Below are positions 1 through 62,150 of a DNA stretch of 64,000 nucleotides, piece by piece. Every line of letters begins with the position of its first letter. Positions within the stretch are counted from its first letter, which is position 1. This stretch comes from Pristiophorus japonicus (taxonomy: Eukaryota): NCBI RefSeq assembly GCF_044704955.1, contig NC_091980.1, forward strand, positions 130,262,001 through 130,326,000. The letters run 5' to 3'. Position numbers and translations under genes: made by a program. The notes under the pieces are model-generated. The model was not told where the DNA came from and made no database searches. It saw only the letters and a program-made list of their open reading frames with translations.

Positions 1-63
1 GCAGTGACATCACCAAGACTGATCTCCCCCAGACCCCTCCTACAAATCCCCTCTCCTTTGTTA

Positions 64-158
64 ATTGGTGCCTCAATTCCTGATTGGCTCTGAGGGATTG
101 TCAATCATCATTGGTGATGTCATACCCTGTTTGACTGCAGCTGTTCCAATAGTATAAA
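64..158 (+). promoter_or_regulatory. Ferritin A1 promoter: ATTGG at 64, 83, 110; CCAAT at 146; TATAAA 153-158
   Basis: Motifs read directly. TATA is 76 bp upstream of the ATG and the layout is conserved in A2 and A3. Confidence 0.7.
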
Positions 159-228
159 TATAGGAGCTTGTGCAAGACTGTGTGAGTTTCAGAATTGTGC
201 AGAGGATAGTGAAATATAGATAGTGAAG

Positions 229-2792
229 ATGGCTTCCCAAGTGTGTCAGAACTACCACAAGGACTGTGAGGCTGCTGTCAACAAGCATATCAACATGGAG
301 CTCTGTTCCTCCTATGTTTATCTCTCCATGGTGAGTTGTGTATTCCTTGTTGCTGCATTCTGAAAAGTTGTTAATTCTCCAGTTCAATGAATTGGCTTTA
401 TGTTGTATTTCTCTGGACTTCCTTCCCTGGGGGAGCAGAATCTTTGGGCAGTGAGAACTTCAGGTGTGTAATACAGGGGATCTTGTTGAGTTCATGGACT
501 GCTCCTGACAGCAGCTGCCCTCTATTGAGGTTTAATATTGGAAACCAGCTCAGCTGCTGCCTGAGTGTGTGACAGAAGAGCACAAACCTGGTCAGGGGCG
601 TGTTGACCTGAAACAATGTTCAGTTTCAGTGGGGGACTGCAGTGAGTGAAATGTGGGTAGGTTCTCATTAGTGCTCTCATTAATTGGAGGTGATGTACTG
701 AGAATCCTGCTGTTGGAGCCCTGCTCACTGCTGAGATCTCTTGCACTATTGTTGTGTAAACTACTGGAGTGGAGGATTTTTCTCACTCCATGTCCAAACT
801 TTGATTAGAATGGAAGAATAATCATTTCTATAATGCCTTTCACTACCTTGGAATATCCAAAGTGCTTTGTAGCCAATGAAGGAGTTAAGTGTAGTTACCT
901 GTTATGTGGGAAATGCAGCAGCCAATTAGTGCACAGGATGCTCCCACAAACTGAAATGAGATAATGATCAGATCATCTGTTTTCGTGGTGTTGGTTGAGG
1001 GATAAATATTAGCCAGGACACTGCAGAGAGCTCTCTGCAGTAGTATTTAGAACATGGAGAAGGCTTGAGGAACCAATGGCTGACTCCAGTCATTCACTCA
1101 GATCATTGCTAATCTTGTACCTCAACTCCACCTCCTGCACTGTCCCCATATCCTTTGCTATCCAAAAGTCTATTGCTCTTGAATATACTCTGACTGGAAT
1201 TCTCTACCCCAGGAGTTGTGGAGGCTCAGAGTCATCACATTGAGTTTAGAAATTCCTCCTCATCTCAGTCCTCAATGACCCCTGGTTCTTGACTCTCCAG
1301 CAAGGGGAACCATCCTCCCTGCATCTAATCCTTCAAGTCCTGTAAGAATTTTGTACATGCCTAATGACATCACCTCTCATCCTTCGAACCTTGAGAATAG
1401 AGGCTCAGTCTGCTCAATCTCTCCTCCTTGATCTTTCACATGCACCTGATGACTGACACACTCTTGTGTGAATGACACAGTAGAGGAGGTATTGCTTATC
1501 CAGGAGTAGAATTTAGTTTGACTGGACATTAAATATAATCCTGAACTTTAGTTTTATATGTTCAACCAGCAAAGGAAAAACTTTCATCATGCTATGGGGA
1601 GGTGAGGCTCAACTCCAATTGATGAAGTCAATGGCATTTTGCTAGTTTACAAATGGTGTCTATCTTTTTAAGAATTCATTCATTCTGTGGAAAAATAACT
1701 CTTGCATTGTATATGAAGATCAAGGTCTAAATAGGCTGTCTTAATTTCTCTCTGCAGTCGTTCTATTTTGACCGGGATGATGTTGCCCTGTGTCACTTTG
1801 CTGAGTTCTTCAAGGAGCAGTCACATGAGGAACGTGAGCATGCTGAGAAACTGATGCAATTCCAGAATCGCCGTGGAGGACGGATCATCTTGTCTGACAT
1901 CAAGGTTTGGTTCAATTATCTAGTGGCCTTCTGTCTGGATACCCTTTGACCTGATTGATTCAAATACCTCCTAAAGCAATTGATTCCATGGTTGTGGTAG
2001 TGGAATTCAGTAATTCTATATTCCTGTGACACATTTCTGATTGCTTTTTTTAATCCTATTTTCCTTTGTATTGTCTTTTGTATTTTGTTTGTACATTGTA
2101 AGTGAACTGCCTGTGATTTTCCTCTTCAGAAACCAGAGCAGGATGAGTGGAGCAATGGTCTGGATGCAATGCAGAGAGCTCTGCAGATGGAGAAGAATGT
2201 GAACCAGAGTCTGCTGGATCTGCACAAAATCTCCACTGGGAGCACTGACCCTCATGTAAGTTCCTCATGTGGGTTTCTGGGCAACTTGGAGGTGGTGGAA
2301 TATTGCTATCCTTGAGCTGTTTCAAAAGTGCTCCATGCCCAATAGCTTTGTTTTTAAGGGGAGGGTGGTCTCTCTTGGGTTCTTCAGGGGGTGGGGGAGA
2401 GGACCATGAAGTTGGCCTACTGTGGACATTGAGACATAAATGGGTCCCAATGTTTCCAGGATCTAAGCTCACATTGTACAGTAGCTACTGGATCATTAGA
2501 GCAAATGTACATCAATTTCAATTGCCCTACCTGATCCTTCTCCACTCAGAGAATTAAAATCCTAACTTTGGAGGGGGGATGCTCTGATCCTTGATATCTG
2601 CTACTGGCCATAACTCATTTCCCTCTTTTCTTTCAGTTGTGTGACTTCCTGGAGACCCACTACTTGGATGAACAAGTGAAGATGATCAAGAAGCTTGGAG
2701 ATCACATCACCAACCTGAAGAGACTGGGAGCCCCTGAGAATGGCATGGGAGTGTACCTTTTTGACAGGCACACTCTGGGGGAGAGTGACTAA
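229..2792 (+). CDS. fth1: Ferritin heavy/middle-type subunit (FTH1-like), copy A1; exons 229-330, 1758-1904, 2130-2255, 2637-2792; 176 aa
   Basis: Manual splice gives [176 protein letters not shown]. Three phase-0 GT-AG introns lie at the conserved vertebrate ferritin positions. E27, Y34, E61, E62, H65, E107 and Q141 (human H numbering) are present. Exact orthology (H vs M) is not resolved, so the symbol is indicative only. Confidence 0.95.
815..1035 (-). mobile_element. Deu-domain SINE fragment (SacSINE1/AmnSINE1-like) in A intron 1, followed by a CR1 3' relic to ~1430; repeated at ~24735-24950 and ~49415-49630
   Basis: The reverse strand reads ...AATATTTATCCCTCAACCAACACCAC..AAACAGATG...TGTGGGAG...GTGCACTAATTGGCTGCTGCATTT...TTCATTGGCTACAAAGCACTTTGG, which resembles the Deu domain as I recall it. 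Confidence 0.65.
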
Positions 2793-10153: not shown

Positions 10154-10315
10154 CCAATGATGCTCATTCTTCGAAGATCTGATTGGCTCTGGGAGTCCAT
10201 CTCCCTCCTCCCTTTACTTGATTGGTGCTCTGAGAAGATGCAACTTCTGATTGGGTATTGATGACTGTCACTCATCATCAAGAGTGCCACACCCTGGATT
10301 ATCCCTCAGTATAAA
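10154..10315 (+). promoter_or_regulatory. Ferritin B1 promoter: CCAAT at 10154; ATTGG at 10182, 10221, 10250; TATAAA 10310-10315
   Basis: Motifs read directly. TATA is 83 bp upstream of the ATG. Visibly homologous to the A promoter. Confidence 0.7.
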
Positions 10316-10392
10316 TATTGGAGTTTGATATTAGTGAAATGTTATCTTTGTACTTTTAAAAAGTTTTTACTTTGGAAAAATAAAATATTAAG

Positions 10393-19186
<8,794 letters not shown>

Positions 19187-23968: not shown

Positions 23969-24074
23969 ATTGGTGCCTCAATTCAGGGAAGATTCCTGAT
24001 TGGCTCTGAGGGATTGTCAATCATCATTGGTGATGTCATACCCTGTTTGAATGCAGCTGTTCCAATAGTATAAA
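23969..24074 (+). promoter_or_regulatory. Ferritin A2 promoter (CCAAT boxes, TTCAGGGAA 23982-23990, TATAAA 24069-24074)
   Basis: Homologous to the A1 promoter plus 11 bp. Confidence 0.65.
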
Positions 24075-24144
24075 TACAGGAGCTTGTGCAAGATAGAGTG
24101 AGTTCTAGAACTGTGCAGGTGATAGTGAAATATAGATAGAGAAG

Positions 24145-27100
24145 ATGGCCTCCCAAGTGCGTCAGAACTACCACAAGGACTGTGAGGCTGCTGTCAACAA
24201 GCAGATCAACATGGAGCTCTGTTCCTCCTATGTTTACCTCTCCATGGTGAGTTGTGTATTCCTTGTTGCTGCATTCTGAAAAGTTGTTAATTCTCCAGTT
24301 CAATAAATTGGCTTTAAGTTGTATTTCTCTTGACTTCCTTCCCTGGGGGAGCAGAGTCTTTGGGCAGTGAGAACTTCAACTGTGTAATACAGGGGATCTT
24401 GTTGAGTTGATGGACTGCTCCCTACAGCAGCTGCCCTCTATTGAGGTTTAATATTGGAAACCAGCTCAGCTGCTGCCTGAGTGTGTGACAGAAGAGCACA
24501 AACCTGGTCAGGGGCCTGTTGACCTGAGACAATGTTCAGTTTCAGTGGGGGACTGCAGTGAGTGAAATGTGGGTAGGTTCTCATTAGTGCTCTCATTAAT
24601 TGGAGGTGATGTACTGAGAATCCTGCTGTTGGAGCTCTGCTCACTGCTGAGATCTCTTGCACTATTGCTGTGTAAACTACTGGAGTGGAGGATTTTTCTC
24701 ACTCCATGTCCACACTTTGATTTAGAATGGAAGAAGAATCATTTCTATAATGCCTTTCACTACCTTGGAATATCCCAAGTGCTTTGTAGCCAATGAAGGA
24801 GTTAAGTGTAGTTACCTGTTATGTGGGAAATGCAGCAGCCAATTAGTGCACAGGATGCTCCCACAAACTGAAATGAGATAATGATCAGATCATCTGTTTT
24901 AGTGGTGTTGGTTGAGGGATAAATATTAGCCAGGACACTGCAGAGAGCTCCTTGCAGTAGTATCTAGAACATGGAGAAGGCTTGAGGGACCAATGGCTGA
25001 CTCCTGTCATTCACTAAGATCATTGCTAATCTTGTACCTCAACTCCACCTCCTGCACTGTCCCCATATCCTTTGCTATCCAAAAATCTATTGCTCTTGAA
25101 TATACTCAATGACTGGAATTCTCTAACCCAGGAGCTGTGGAGGCTCAAAGAGTCATCATGGAGTGAAGAAATTTCTCCTCATCTCAGTCCTCAATGACCC
25201 CTGGTTCTAGTCTCTCTCCAGCAAGGGGAACCATCCTCCCTGCATCCAATCCTTCAAGTCCTGTAAGAATTTTGTACATTCCTAATGACATCACCTCTCA
25301 TCCTTTGAACCTTGAATAGAGGCTCAGTCTGCTCAATCTCTCCTCCTTGATCTTTCACATCCACCTCATGACTGACACACTCTTGTGTGAATGGCAGAAA
25401 GTAGAGGAGTTATTGCTTATCCAGGAGTAGAATTTAGTTTGACTGGACATGAAATATAATCCTGAACTTTAGTTTTATATGTTCAACCAGCAAAGGAAAA
25501 ACTTTCATCATGCTATGGGGAGGTGAGGCTCAACTCCAATTGATGAAGTCAATGGCATTTTGCTAGTTTACAAATGGTGTCTATCTTTTTAAGAATTCAT
25601 TCATTCTGGGGAAAAATAACTCTTGCATTGTATATGAAGATCAAGGTCTAAATAGGCTGTCTTAATTTCTCTCTGCAGTCCTTCTACTTTGACCGGGATG
25701 ATGTTGCCCTGCGTCACTTTGCTGAGTTCTTCAAGGAGCAGTCACATGAGGAACGTGAGCATGCTGAGAAACTGATGCAATTCCAGAATCGCCGTGGAGG
25801 ACGGATCATCTTGTCTGACATCAAGGTTTGGTTCAATTATTTAGTGGCCTTCTGTCTGGATACCCTTAGACCTGATTGTTTCAAATACCTCCTAAAGCAA
25901 TTGATTCCGTGGTAGTGGAATTCAGTAATTCTATATTCCTGTGACACATTGTTTATGGTAAAATGGACTCTGGTTGCTTTTTTTATCCTATTTTTCTTTG
26001 TACTGTCTTGTATTTTGTTTGTTCCATTGTAAGTGAACTACCTGTGATTTTCCTCTTCAGAAACTAGAGCAGGATGAGTGGAGCAATGGTCTGGATGCAA
26101 TGCAGAGAGCTCTGCAGATGGAGAAGAATGTGAACCAGAGTCTGCTGGATCTGCACACAATCTCCACTGGGAGCACTGACCCTCATGTAAGTTCCTCATG
26201 TGGGTTTCTGGGCAACTTGGAGGTGGTGGAACATTGCTATCCTTGAGCTGTTTCAAAAGTGCTCCATGTCCAATAGCTTTGTTTTTAGGGGGGGGGGTGG
26301 TCTCTCTTGGGTTCTTCAGGGGGTGGGGGAGAGGACCATGAAGTTGGCCAGCTGTGGACATTGAGACATAAATGGGTCCCAATGTTTCCAGGATCTGAGC
26401 TCTCATTTGTAGGGGAGGATGAAAACCCCCTCATTTTACCCAGAAGGAAAAGGGCTGTGGGATCAGTCTGTGCTGTGAATTGAAACCGATGGAAGGAAAA
26501 CTTTGGGACACAAATGGAGACCCCCCCAGTGTTTGGACTCGAAGGAAAGGGAATTTAATTTGGAACTATCTACCAAAAAGTTTGAAATCTTCAAGTGCAC
26601 ATGGAAGAAACTATGAACTTTAATCGAATTTGGGATTTTTTAAAAGGTCTGCAAGACAAGGGGTGGAGTCAATATCAAAAGGGCCAGTTTGGACATTGGA
26701 ACTAATCAAATTGTCTGGGAACTGTATACCCTCGAAACTTGCCCCTTGAAAACATTAGCATTTAAACAATGCCACATACATATTCCAACACCTTTTTCAT
26801 CAGGCATAGAAATATCTGGCTCTGGCCAGACTAGCACAATGGCTACAGGAGGCCAATGCAATCAACACCCACTCAAACCTTGAGTAGGTTAAGATCAGTG
26901 GGGGGAAAAAAAACCTAAAAACCTCAAACTGCTGCATTTTTCAAAATCAAAAGTCCACCAATGAGAAGAATCGACTTCAGCAGGAGAGGCGGACTGGATA
27001 ATCTGGCTATAAACAAGGGGTTTCTGACGTAGTGAAAAAAGAAATGATGATTTTCCCTGCCCTCATGATTCAACAACCACAACCACAAGCCTCTCGACAC

Positions 27101-28026
27101 TGAAGGAAAACCAGTGTCCGAAGATAGAAGAAACAAACCACCAGACTGCGGAAGGCACAGTAGTGAGTATAACCTCCGGTCCCCAGAACTCCCAACTCAG
27201 TTAGGCCAGGAAAGGTGGGAGGTTGGGCATTGTACTGCTAAACTGGTGTAAAGATTTTCGTTGGGTCCGTTTTAGTGGGATTTAAGGGAATTGTTTTGTT
27301 GGTGTATTGCTGTTTGTTGAATTACACCTTGTCAAATAAATTGGAAGCCTAAAGTTCCTCTTGGAATCACCTTGTCTCAGTTCTATTGTATTACATCTCC
27401 TGATCGTGAGTCTTATGTCAGAACCGTGTAAAGGAAGCTAGGAGTGCCTCAAACACTCAACTGTGTGTCACAGGCTAGGGAAGAAGGTGTTAGGAGTGTT
27501 TGACACTCTCAGGTGCCTCACAGGCTAGGCAAAAGCTGTGGGGACGCACGAGTCTCAAAACCCCCTTCATAAGCTGTGGATACAGTCTCTCCAGGGGTGC
27601 TCTTGCAGCACTCAGGGTACCTCACAGGTCAGGCATAAGCTGTGAGGGCAGAAGCCTAGAGAGAGACACCCAAGGCACAACAACAACCCTGTGAAAACCC
27701 CTTACACATTGCACAGTAGCAACTGGATCATTAGAGCAAATGTACATAAATTTCAATGGCCCTGCCTGATCCTTCTCCACTCCCAGAGAATTAAAATCCT
27801 AACTTGGGGGGGATGCACTGATCCTTGATATCTGTTACTGGCCATAACTCATTTCCCTCTTCTCTTTCAGTTGTGTGACTTCCTGGAGACCCACTACTTG
27901 GATGAACAAGTCAAGATGATCAAGAAGCTTGGTGATCACATCACCAACCTGAAGAGACTGGGAGCCCCTGAGAATGGCATGGGAGTGTACCTTTTTGACA
28001 AGCACACTCTGGGGGAGAGTGTCTAA
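24145..28026 (+). CDS. fth1: Ferritin subunit, copy A2; exons 24145-24246, 25679-25825, 26061-26186, 27871-28026; 176 aa
   Basis: Intact frame and GT-AG sites. Private changes are KPEQ>KLEQ, LHK>LHT and terminal ESD>ESV. Intron 3 is enlarged by a 1.3 kb insertion. Confidence 0.93.
26408..27706 (+). mobile_element. 1.3 kb solo-LTR-like insertion private to A2 intron 3
   Basis: Absent from A1 and A3. Termini TGTAGGGG...CCCCTTACA with a 4-bp TSD CATT (26404-26407 / 27707-27710). AATAAA at 27335-27340 gives the orientation. No long ORF. Confidence 0.85.
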
Positions 28027-35545: not shown

Positions 35546-35707
35546 CCAATGATGCTCATTCTTCGAAGATCTGATTGGCTCTGGGAGTCCATCTCCCTCC
35601 TCCCTTTACTTGATTGGTGCTCTGAGAAGATGCAACTTCTGATTGGGTATTGATGACTGTCACTCATCATCAAGAGTGCCACACCCTGGATTATCCCTCA
35701 GTATAAA
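35546..35707 (+). promoter_or_regulatory. Ferritin B2 promoter (CCAAT boxes, TATAAA 35702-35707)
   Basis: Near-identical to the B1 promoter. Confidence 0.65.
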
Positions 35708-35784
35708 TATTGGAGTTTGATATTAGTGAAATGTTATCTTTGTACTTCTAAAAAGTTTTTACTTTGGAAAAATAAAATATTAAG

Positions 35785-43914
<8,130 letters not shown>

Positions 43915-48649: not shown

Positions 48650-48756
48650 AATTGGTGCCTCAATTCAGGGAAGATTCCTGATTGGCTCTGAGGGATTTTC
48701 AATCATCATTGGTGATGTCATATCCTATTTGAATGCAGCTGTTCCATTAGTATAAA
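48650..48756 (+). promoter_or_regulatory. Ferritin A3 promoter (TATAAA 48751-48756; proximal CCAAT changed to CCATT)
   Basis: Homologous to the A2 promoter. Confidence 0.6.
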
Positions 48757-48826
48757 TACAGGAGCTTGTGCAAGACTGTGTGAGTTCCGGAACTTTGCAG
48801 AGGATAGTGAGATATAGATAGTGAAG

Positions 48827-51373
<2,547 letters not shown>

Positions 51374-58883: not shown

Positions 58884-59045
58884 CCAATGATGCTCATTCT
58901 TCAAAGATCTGATTGGCTCTGGGAGTCCATCTCCCTCCTCCCTTTACTTGATTGGTGCTCTGAGAAGATACAACTTCTGATTGGGTATTGATGACTGTCA
59001 CTCATCATCAAGAGTGCCACACCCTGGATTATCCCTCAGTATAAA
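58884..59045 (+). promoter_or_regulatory. Ferritin B3 promoter (CCAAT boxes, TATAAA 59040-59045)
   Basis: Near-identical to the B1 and B2 promoters. Confidence 0.65.
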
Positions 59046-59122
59046 TATTGGAGTTTGATATTAGTGAAATGTTATCTTTGTACTTCTAAAAAGTTTTTAC
59101 TTTGGAAAAATAAAATATTAAG

Positions 59123-62100
59123 ATGGCTTCGCAAGTGCGTCAGAATTACCACAAGGACTGTGAGGATGCTGTCAACAAGCAGATCAACATGGAGCTCTAT
59201 TCCTCCTATGTTTATCTCTCTATGGTGAGTTTTGTATTTTTTGCCCCTTTACAATGGAGACTATGTAATGTGAATTTATGAAATCCTGTGCTGTACCCAG
59301 CCCACCTATTTCTCTCTTTCTGCCCACCTGCCCCCAGCCCTGAATCTATGCAGTGAGTTCACTTTAAAGCTATAATATGATACAATTTATCTTAATTTGT
59401 ATTTATTAACAAATTCTCTTTGTTTCTTGCAGCAGCTGTATCATCTGATTATTTTGATTCTTTTTTTTCCTGCGATCTTGAGCTTGATGAAGTTTATTTG
59501 GAATACATTCTGTACACAATGCAAGGAATTCAGAATTTGTATCCTCATTCTAAATCACTGCATGGATTTTCCTTACCTTGCTGGTTCAATGGGTGATGTC
59601 ATAAAAATAAATCTAGGCCATTTCGGAGGGATGTCAGGAAGTATTCTTTCCCACCAGTGTGGTGGAAATCTGAAACACTTTCTTTCTCAGCCATCCCTCA
59701 CCTCCACGGGGAGGATGGGAAGAAAGTGTTACAAATGTTTCTGCTTTCCTCCTGTTCCTAGTATTTCTCACCACTAATTTTAAGTACCAGTTTGTATCCT
59801 TCTGTCTTTCCTCTAACTTTTTGCAATCATAAAGCAGATAGTTAATTATCAATTGTCTGTGCTCAGTGGACTCTCCCTTAACCCCTGTGACCTTCACCAA
59901 GCACCCTCAAATTCTGAGGGGTTCTCCTAACTTTTATTCTGTGGTCTCTGGTTCTCCTCTACAATGCTTTGATTTGTGTAGACTGTCAAATTAATGCTGC
60001 TTGTGGTAGTTTTAGTTCCTTGGCATGAATGCAGCCAGTAAAACTCGGTTAGTTTTTCTTTTTTTTTATATATGAATTCTGCATTGGGACTAGATCTAGT
60101 TTAGGCAATTGCTTTTACTGCCTCTCAACTAGCCTGTACAAAATGTATTTGGGTTAATAAACAATTATTATTGGAGCATGCTACTGGTGACCAGGGTATA
60201 AATCTTGTGGCAATTCCTTCACCTAATTTCCAGAGCTGCAATGAATATTGGGTGCCAAGATTCAGGTTCCAGTTTTAAGCATGTTCAATCAAAGCTGAAT
60301 TGGTGATCATGAGTGATGCAGCACAGGAGGCCATTCAGTCCATTGTGCCTTGCTGAATGTTGGTTGGAGCGATACAACTGTTTCCATAGCCTACAAATTT
60401 TTCTAAATCACGTAAGTGGATGAGAATGGGGAATTAGTAATGGGCAACATAGAGATGGCAGAAAATCTGAACAAATATCTTGTATCTGTTTTGACAGTAG
60501 AAGACAATAACAACATTCCAATGGTGGATAGTCAAGGGGCTATTGGGGGAGGTACTTAATGCAATAACAATCACCTGAGGAAGTAGTACTCAGTAAGATA
60601 ATTGGGCTCAATTATGTCCTGATGGCTTGCATCCTCGGGCCTTGAGAAGCAGGGATTGTGGATGTATTGGTTATAATTTACCAAAATTACCTGGATTCTG
60701 GGGAGGTCCCAGCAGATTGGAAAGCTGCAAATGTAATGCCCCTTCCTTTTTTTTTGAAATAAAAGAAACTTTTGACCAGTTAGCCTAATATCTGATAGGG
60801 AAAATGTTGGAGTCCATTATTAACATCGCAGGGACATTTGGAAAAGCAAAATTTGATCAGGCAGAGTCGGCATGGATTTGTGAGGGGAAGTCGTGTTTGA
60901 CAAATTTGCTGGAATTCTTTGAGGATGTCATGAACAGGGTGGATGAAAGTGAACCAGTGGCTGTTTTGTATTTGGACCTCCAGAAGGTATTTGAGAAGGT
61001 GCCACAAAAGATTACGGCACAAGATGAAAGTTCACAGGCTTTGGGGGTAATATATTAGCATGGATAGAGGATTGGCTAAAGAACCGAGTCAGGATAAATG
61101 GTTCATTCTCTGGTTGGCAACCAGGATCTAGTAGAGTGCCGCAAGGATCAGTGCTGGGACCCCAACTATTTACAATCTATATTACATTCTGTCCCTCCTT
61201 CCAAGTCGGTTACGTCGCCTAGTTTGTTCCTCCCAACTTTGTATCAGTAATGTGTGAGGAGAACACACTTCTGCAGAAGGACATAGGCAGGCTAAGTGAG
61301 TGGGCAAAAATTTGACTGTAGGAAAGTGAGGTCATGCACTTTAGCAGAACAAGAATCAAAGAGCAAATGTTTATTGAAATGGAGCAAGATTGCAAAGTGC
61401 CGCAGTACAGCAGGAGCGGAGGGGGGTGGGGTGTGGTGGGTGCCTCTGCTCATTTGGAATTCAGAAGAATGAGGAACTTATTGAAGTGTATAAGATTGAG
61501 GGGGCTTGACTGGGTGGATACAGAGGATGTTTCCACTGATGGGGAGACTACAACTAGAAGGCATGATCTTAAAATAAGGGGTTTCCCATTTACAACTGAA
61601 ATATCTTGAGCGTTGTCAATCTGTGGAATTCACTGCCTGAGCTGTGGAAAGCTGAGACATTGAATAAATTTAAGACTGTAATACAGTTTCTTAAATGCTA
61701 AGGGGTTATGTGGGGATGAGTCCATGATCAGATCAGCCATAATCTTAAATGGTGGCACAGGCTCTGAGCTGTGTGGTCTACTCCTGTTCATATTTCTCAT
61801 GTTAGGTTTCCCTATGGCTGGAGCTGAGATTATCCAATGTATTTACCAGGTTAATTGAGTAGGTTCTAGTTTCCATAAATATACATACAAGTTCAGTGAG
61901 ACTGAGCTCTTGAATCAAGAAAAATGAGTTTGGCTTCATGTACAGTGCCCATGCTGATGGGTCTGGCATGCAATAATCAACTACACTTCTGATCCCTCCG
62001 CAGTCCTTCTACTTTGACCGGGATGATGTTGCCCTGCGTCACTTTGCTGAGTTCTTCAAGGAGCAGTCACATGAGGAACGTGAGCATGCTGAGAAACTGA

Positions 62101-62150
62101 TGGAATTCCAGAATCGGCGTGGAGGCCGAATCATCTTGGCAGACATCAAG
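59123..62150 (+). CDS. fth1: Ferritin subunit, copy B3, partial (exons 59123-59224 and 62004-62150; exons 3-4 lie beyond the window)
   Basis: Exons 1-2 translate identically to B2 and have GT-AG sites. Confidence 0.92.

Follow-up and report, generated by a model that had tools for sequence, protein, structure and literature searches.

The window analysed here is a 64-kb stretch of the Pristiophorus japonicus genome (C4:130262001-130326000; genome size 5.92 Gb) that is occupied by a tandem array of ferritin genes, and the question addressed is whether these genes carry an iron-responsive element (IRE), the leader hairpin through which iron regulatory proteins (IRPs) control translation. A tandem unit of ~24 kb is repeated nearly three times in the window and each unit contains two ferritin genes of four exons, one of type A and one of type B. 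The start codons of the type A genes (A1, A2 and A3) lie at positions 229, 24145 and 48827, and those of the type B genes (B1, B2 and B3) at 10393, 35785 and 59123. The features of the window are listed below.

64..150, + strand: A1 proximal promoter, with three inverted CCAAT boxes (64-68, 83-87 and 110-114), CAGCTG (138-143) and CCAAT (146-150)
153..160, + strand: A1 TATA box, TATAAATA
182..228, + strand: predicted A1 5' leader of ~47 nt (start taken as TATA+29), without an IRE or a recognizable relic of one
229..2792, + strand: ferritin A1, open frame of 176 aa, exons 229-330, 1758-1904, 2130-2255 and 2637-2792
10310..10392, + strand: B1 TATA box and leader, with a strongly decayed IRE relic at ~10348-10374
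10393..19186, + strand: ferritin B1, open frame, exons 10393-10494, 13274-13420, 18598-18723 and 19031-19186
24069..24144, + strand: A2 TATA box and leader, without an IRE
24145..28026, + strand: ferritin A2, open frame in four exons with the ferroxidase ligands retained
35702..43914, + strand: B2 TATA box, leader with a decayed relic at ~35740-35766, and four-exon open-frame ferritin
48751..48826, + strand: A3 TATA box and leader, without an IRE
48827..51373, + strand: ferritin A3, open frame of 175 aa, with a one-codon deletion in exon 3 and a GC donor at intron 3
59040..62150, + strand: B3 TATA box, leader with a decayed relic at ~59078-59104, and exons 1-2 (the gene continues past the end of the window)

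The CAGCTG of the A1 promoter is E-box-like, and the promoter boxes are assigned putative roles. A polyadenylation signal (AATAAA) follows A1 near position 2910.

The array extends over ~5.5 Mb of C4. A genome search with exon 1 gave 353 candidates. Of the 150 that were scored, one is on C19 and the other 149 span 127.8-133.3 Mb of C4. A 21-nt exon-4 motif, with at most one mismatch, gave 325 matches in the genome (pseudogenes included) and none for the control; 97 of the 100 matches listed fall inside the array. The A-type promoter motif has 63 matches, two of them on C19, and type A must be a minority of the array because only 53 lie within it on C4. Forty loci beyond the window were drawn from the 149 C4 matches, 20 of them from the inner part, which is rich in type A, and the other 20 scattered over the outer array. 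Between 129.0 and 129.7 Mb, exon-1 matches on the minus strand recur as blocks at a spacing of ~260 kb, and the plus strand shows a mirror image of them, a pattern that points to large segmental and inverted duplications or to assembly redundancy.

A sequence-only reading of the window had described a gap of only ~70 bp between TATA box and ATG in the type A genes, with neither an IRE loop nor an IRE hairpin. The measurements agree with this description. The distance from the start of the TATA box to the ATG is 76 nt in A1 (153 to 229), A2 and A3 alike, and the loop hexamer CAGWGH is absent from the last 100 nt upstream of the ATG in all three. In an ungapped comparison with the 27-nt IRE core, taken from this genome's own C19 ferritin IRE, none of 20 A-type copies reaches 15 matches, and their mean (11.7) is at the chance level (12.1 for shuffles). 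Among the 47 array copies inspected, CAGWGH lies within 100 nt of the ATG in nine, none of which can form more than one of the five stem pairs. The type A leaders also lack the paired upper stem with an unpaired C five pairs beneath the loop, and none of nine array-type leaders that were folded forms the IRE hairpin, which the C19 IRE does form.

A scan with the Rfam covariance model RF00037 (threshold 34 bits), a check that the sequence-only reading had proposed for the true leader, gave the same result. Both positive controls were detected (L008, 45.2 bits; L003, 46.2 bits). The window itself has no IRE match, either at the gathering score or with the cut-off relaxed to E <= 5. Nor do the 10 kb that precede it (L002) or the 40 further loci, each taken with ~2.3 kb of upstream DNA, giving no match of 34 bits or more across the window and 41 array loci. 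The IRE core pattern, allowing two mismatches, has 33 matches in the genome and none within C4 127-134 Mb. Nine loose IRE-like motifs on the + strand of the window were rejected: they offer only four of the five stem pairs, lie far from the leaders and have no Rfam score. The 3' untranslated regions (UTRs) of A1-A3 and B1 contain no IRE loop; among these four, a motif resembling a cytoplasmic polyadenylation element is present in that of A2 only. No acceptor-like AG is found 3' of the A-type TATA box (at most ten of 18 positions are pyrimidines, against 14-17 at six real acceptors). The IRE is missing from all 47 copies inspected, and for type A none was found in leader, upstream DNA or introns. 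The absence of the IRE from type A is real, and it reaches every array copy examined. The proposal that the type A copies would escape translational control by IRPs is therefore well supported at the level of sequence; its restriction to type A was too narrow, as the loss extends to all copies examined and has left a fossil in type B.

That fossil is seen in the B-type and outer-array leaders, which carry TTGCTTCAACAAAGTTTAGA or close variants where the C19 IRE reads TTGCTTCAACAGTGTTTGAA. At least 15 of the 27 positions of the C19 IRE core are matched by 18 of 26 such leaders, compared with 4.5% of shuffles, in the ungapped test. Twenty-two leaders score at least 14, and their consensus shares 17/27 positions with the core and retains an exact 11-nt run spanning the bulged C and the 5' arm; the loop has changed from CAGUGU to CAAAGU, the upper stem has acquired a C-A mismatch and the 3' arm is mismatched. 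Individual relics often keep the bulged C and three or four of the five stem pairs beneath the altered loop; in the consensus the loop lies 49 nt past the start of the TATA box (59 nt in the C19 gene). The array contains all 32 exact matches to the relic motif in the genome and 34 of 36 with one mismatch; at up to two mismatches there are 147 matches in total and 60 for the control. The window's own B leaders are more decayed (13-14/27) and their relic was placed by alignment; that of B1 (13/27) is not significant alone and was positioned by alignment to better-kept outer-array relics. A gapped local-alignment test was set aside, as an unrelated AT-rich part of the C19 leader also gave p ~0.01. 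The relic sits at the place of the IRE and is, as judged from these alignments, a fossil IRE, of which the type A leaders appear to have lost even the remnant. The genome thus holds an intact IRE (C19), a loop-mutated relic (type B and outer array) and an erased element (type A). Type A may have arisen by a single deletion of the IRE 5' arm between short repeats, for which pairwise alignments give several equally weak solutions.

The genome search with RF00037 gave six matches over the cut-off among 82 candidates scored. One is a perfect IRE in the leader of a ferritin gene on C14, ~70 kb from a bestrophin gene, an arrangement like that of human FTH1. The array does not share this synteny, there being no bestrophin match on C4. 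A second perfect IRE lies in the leader of the C19 ferritin, which by exclusion would be the M/L-lineage gene. Glycogen-synthase and Bcl-2-family genes are located 4.3 and 3.6 Mb from the C19 gene; this synteny does not prove it to be the FTL orthologue because glycogen synthase is also near the C14 gene. Compared with the PDB, C19 exon 2 scores nearly equally against H chains and a middle subunit (69.8 and 67.1 bits). Three multi-exon aconitase-family loci are also present and are presumably IRP1, IRP2 and mitochondrial aconitase.

The remaining four matches are dispersed copies, ~90 nt long, of the C19 leader, each with a perfect IRE core.

C10:8568868: C19-leader copy L004
C12:134270889: C19-leader copy L005
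C17:127177973: C19-leader copy L006
C18:13522966: C19-leader copy L007

They begin near the presumed start site of the C19 gene, three end at the same T-rich run and no ferritin frame is present in the surrounding 3 kb. They look like retroposed 5' fragments.

The C19 gene has six further ferritin genes or fragments as neighbours within 100 kb. Two of them are divergent; of the four array-type ones, g7 is intact and three are broken, two of these carrying an A-type promoter and leader interrupted by insertions. The eight array genes that were built form a single clade with g7 (support 99/99), apart from both IRE-bearing genes. The synonymous divergence (dS) of the array genes is 1.3-1.6 to the C19 gene and at least 2.2, or saturated, to the C14 gene, and the array TATA region aligns with that of the C19 gene. 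Adjacency, lower dS and the TATA-region alignment together favour descent of the array from the C19 gene, which we consider likely. The duplication would have been at the DNA level and not by retroposition because the introns are retained; movement between C19 and C4 could have been in either direction. Three neighbours of the C19 gene have features of their own. The four-exon ferritin g2 (C19:93128615-93141730, + strand; L052/L051/L050) has no ATG at the usual place and no Rfam IRE (L052); a start at the in-frame ATG ~93 nt before it gives 31 extra residues, in which Arg, Ala, Leu and Gly are frequent. This extension looks like a mitochondrial presequence, and g2 could be an intron-containing mitochondrial ferritin independent of the intronless mammalian FTMT. 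Genes g3 (C19:93121556, - strand) and g7 (C19:93055483, - strand) are intact, with an array-like TATA context and no IRE; their ferroxidase ligands are altered at 61 and 65 (g3) and at 61 and 62 (g7), and they are possibly L-like nucleation subunits.

The promoters of the array differ from those of the IRE-bearing genes. A TATA box is situated 62-89 nt upstream of the ATG in 45 of the 47 copies; in L048 the promoter has been replaced by unrelated sequence. In the 45 TATA-bearing copies, the 200 nt before the TATA box contain on average 3.3 CCAAT/ATTGG boxes, compared with 0.64 per 200 nt farther upstream. The same interval has one CCAAT box in the C14 gene and none in the C19 gene, where a CCAAT overlaps the TATA-like box. 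The array promoters are CpG-poor and CCAAT-rich, and their predicted leaders are ~45-55 nt long (~45-47 nt in type A), whereas the TATA-ATG distance of the C14 and C19 genes is 189-234 nt. With several hundred copies under such promoters, control by transcription and copy number, as the sequence-only reading supposed, is plausible.

Promoters of types A and B differ by ~0.44 changes per site (window positions 1-228 against 10160-10392) at a coding dS of ~0.15, and most of the intron DNA cannot be aligned. This contrast suggests that exons were homogenized by gene conversion between old promoter types. The idea that the A promoter is nearer to that of C19 g7 than to that of type B was not supported: g7 is about equally distant from both.

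Array genes have the same exon boundaries as the C14 and C19 genes, are 70-73% identical to them and encode subunits of ~176 aa; C19 exon 2 in turn matches solved ferritins. All seven ferroxidase ligands (E27, Y34, E61, E62, H65, E107 and Q141 in the usual numbering) are kept in A1, A2, B1, B2 and three outer copies. With their four-exon structure and retained ligands, the array genes would qualify as ferroxidase-type H/M ferritins. The ratio of nonsynonymous to synonymous change (dN/dS) among seven array genes is 0.10-0.32, and their coding sequences are under purifying selection. Six outer copies were read across all four exons, of which three (L062, L065 and L068) are broken, and the array therefore turns over. 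A3 lacks the E107 equivalent through its one-codon deletion and, with the GC donor of intron 3, is likely to be impaired. The same deletion occurs in exon 3 of A3 (50720-50842), L065 and L068, in copies up to 2.1 Mb apart, through either recurrent slippage or the spread of one allele. A1 has five cysteines (residues 6, 26 and 46 among them, in exons 1-2), B1 and B2 have one or two, and the IRE-bearing genes have three.

Evidence of transcription comes from two sequencing runs of other organisms, presumably of RNA. In both, many contigs match all four exons, and GT-AG joints are seen at intron 1 in both runs and at intron 2 in one, so that the first two exon junctions of A1 are represented in spliced form; no joint into exon 1 is present among the joints listed. 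In run X1, at an outer-type locus, the sequence before the ATG reads through the 3' arm of the relic, and the 30 letters shown contain no CAGWGH loop. One contig reaches 44 nt upstream. This suggests that the broken IRE is common to another species and may be transcribed next to the ATG. Separately, intron 1 of A1 holds interspersed repeats (823-1040 and 1275-1426) that are frequent in the C19 region, and both are covered by many contigs in the two runs. The shark ferritin cluster has been reported to be ovary-specific in expression (available text of 10.1101/2024.09.09.611499), and ferritin transcripts are described as abundant in vertebrate ovaries and eggs generally (PMC1488847, in part). 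Of the immune, oocyte or tissue-specific roles suggested in the sequence-only reading, that in the ovary thus has published support, through the cluster.

Taken together, these results lead us to propose, with a probability of roughly 0.65, that A1-A3 belong to a tandem array that has no IRE in any examined copy, that derives from an IRE-bearing M/L-type gene and that provides a transcription-driven ovary ferritin which IRPs would not repress. A DNA-level duplicate of the C19 gene, with promoter and IRE, would have founded the array-type lineage beside that gene. The IRE would then have decayed by point changes, still visible in the B and outer leaders, until it was unrecognizable in type A, and the promoter would have gained three or four CCAAT boxes, of presumed regulatory role, ahead of a strong TATA box. 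The lineage as now seen is amplified over ~5.5 Mb of C4, with purifying selection and turnover into pseudogenes. Short-leader mRNAs would be translated at any cytosolic iron level, and ferroxidase-competent shells could be stocked ahead of iron in growing oocytes, with the two single IRE-bearing genes handling ordinary iron-gated storage. IRE-bearing ferritin mRNAs are held back by IRPs at resting iron (PMC11719527, in part); loss of the IRE would make copy number count because extra copies that kept it would all be repressed. A wider formulation, tentative and to our mind somewhat short of an even chance, is that in sharks the IRE of an iron-gated cytosolic ferritin was broken in place and its promoter rewired, which produced an oocyte battery of ~300 copies beyond the reach of IRP repression, and that the array preserves the stages of loss and stocks the yolky egg with iron shells. 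To call this an iron-independent ferritin system, as had been done, goes too far: the genome keeps two IRE-bearing ferritins and three aconitase-family loci, and iron could still act on the array through transcription or ferritin turnover.

Several points weigh against this proposal. The start site is predicted from the position of the TATA box only, and the contigs can show neither a start site nor an expression level; that they leave the promoter uncovered carries no weight here. The two runs are RNA by our guess, have no tissue on record and include none from this organism. The 47 copies inspected, of roughly 325, were chosen by us from the 149 C4 matches. Coding trees, built with this genome's genes only, give no placement of the array clade with C19 as opposed to C14. 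CCAAT clusters are a feature of oocyte promoters, a link that the literature search did not confirm. The relic counts represent one inherited relic and not many events because the copies share descent. The relic also retains C1-G5 of the loop and the bulged C in 17 of 22 copies, and a G3U change in the loop cut IRP binding only slightly in a yeast three-hybrid assay (10.1101/524991, in part). Finally, the ovary of sharks is situated inside the epigonal organ, a lymphomyeloid tissue (PMC5568229, in part).

This last point bears on an alternative in which the loss of the IRE is real and the array serves immune or antioxidant needs, in epigonal lymphomyeloid tissue or under stress, in place of egg provisioning. 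Ovary samples from sharks can include epigonal tissue (PMC5568229), and the fthl27 genes of the hadal snailfish are widely expressed and lowered reactive oxygen species when overexpressed in 293T cells (PMC10746142, in part). Against it stand the ovary-specific expression given in the sole report on the shark cluster (10.1101/2024.09.09.611499) and the abundance of ferritin transcripts in vertebrate ovaries and eggs (PMC1488847), and we regard it as unlikely.

A second alternative is that the B-type relic is a re-tuned element with weak affinity for IRPs or for another protein, so that part of the array is leader-controlled and only type A has escaped. The same variant recurs over 5.4 Mb, the 11-nt 5' arm matches exactly despite a dS of ~1.4 to the C19 gene, four of the five upper-stem pairs are possible in many copies and the 3' arm appears in a contig of another organism. 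Yet the CAGWGH loop is absent from every relic, folding of five B/outer leaders gave no IRE hairpin, Rfam gives no match even at E <= 10 and the relic columns are kept on average in ~84% of the 22 copies. In yeast, moreover, binding of IRP1 was weak or absent where the upper stem was unstable (10.1101/524991). B-type relics may have some residual IRP binding; re-tuning as such seems to us distinctly unlikely.

It is more improbable still that most of the array is neutral debris left by runaway duplication, with the IRE decaying in genes that do little. The broken outer copies (three of six), the lost ligand of A3 and the replaced promoter of L048 are what such debris would include, but the dN/dS of 0.10-0.32, the TATA and CCAAT boxes in 45 of 47 copies, the spliced contigs in two RNA-like runs and a cluster reported to be common to two distant sharks (10.1101/2024.09.09.611499) speak against it. 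That the type A mRNAs obtain an IRE from a non-coding exon or start site farther upstream, for which the prediction of the leader from the TATA box alone leaves room, is scarcely credible because the AGs past the TATA box have no pyrimidine tract, none of the joints listed leads into exon 1 and IREs are lacking from the window, from the preceding 10 kb and, by pattern search, from the array.

The proposal of an ovary ferritin freed from IRP repression would account in regulatory terms for a ferritin expansion already reported but so far left unexplained. It also identifies a natural IRE decay series within one genome that is suited to IRP binding assays, and gives a hint as to how large shark eggs may be supplied with iron. 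The leap is a moderate one: the cluster, its expression in the ovary and IRE-less ferritins have each been published already. What appears to be new is that the IRE has been lost array-wide and has left a fossil element; the cluster and IRE-less ferritins were each known separately. A literature search found no description of IRE loss in shark ferritins, most subscription papers being outside its reach; the main text of the shark cluster preprint contains neither the word 'IRE' nor 'iron' (10.1101/2024.09.09.611499), and the word 'ferritin' is absent from the other shark genome preprints checked.

Among known systems, the closest is that of the Greenland shark, in which 155 'FTL' and 179 'FTH1' copies form clusters syntenic with those of the white shark (10.1101/2024.09.09.611499, in part). 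Both genomes have hundreds of tandem ferritin copies, those published being mostly full-length, and the present array, with at least 149 exon-1 matches on C4 and 325 exon-4 motif matches, exceeds the 100 tandem copies that characterize the published clusters. The two are very likely the same phenomenon. The labels differ: unlike the FTL and FTH1 of the preprint, the eight array genes here form a single clade with g7. The array genes share with vertebrate H and M/L ferritins (RF00037) the four-exon boundaries, the 176-aa core and the ferroxidase ligands, and differ from the IRE-bearing C14 and C19 genes in lacking the IRE, in their shorter predicted leader and in their CpG-poor, CCAAT-rich promoter. 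Vertebrate ferritins outside IRE/IRP control include FTMT, and FTHL17 is expressed in the germline and is multicopy in the mouse (PMC7760355; PMC2887969, both in part). FTMT is intronless, has lost the TATA/CCAAT promoter and is imported into mitochondria, and FTHL17 has no ferroxidase activity (PMC7760355); the array genes, in contrast, have three introns, a promoter, the ligands and no N-terminal extension, and they show an IRE decaying in place. Invertebrates provide IRE-less ferritins in the Schistosoma yolk ferritin, which has been linked to egg provisioning (PMC1488847), and in atypical ferritins such as those of sponges, most of which have no IRE (PMC8395497, in part). These are few-copy genes of unrelated lineages, whereas the array proteins are many and have no N-terminal extension before the core. 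Tandem expansion of ferritin in a fish is also seen in fthl27 of the hadal snailfish, which has 14 copies expressed in most tissues and whose IRE status is unmentioned in the main text of that report (PMC10746142).

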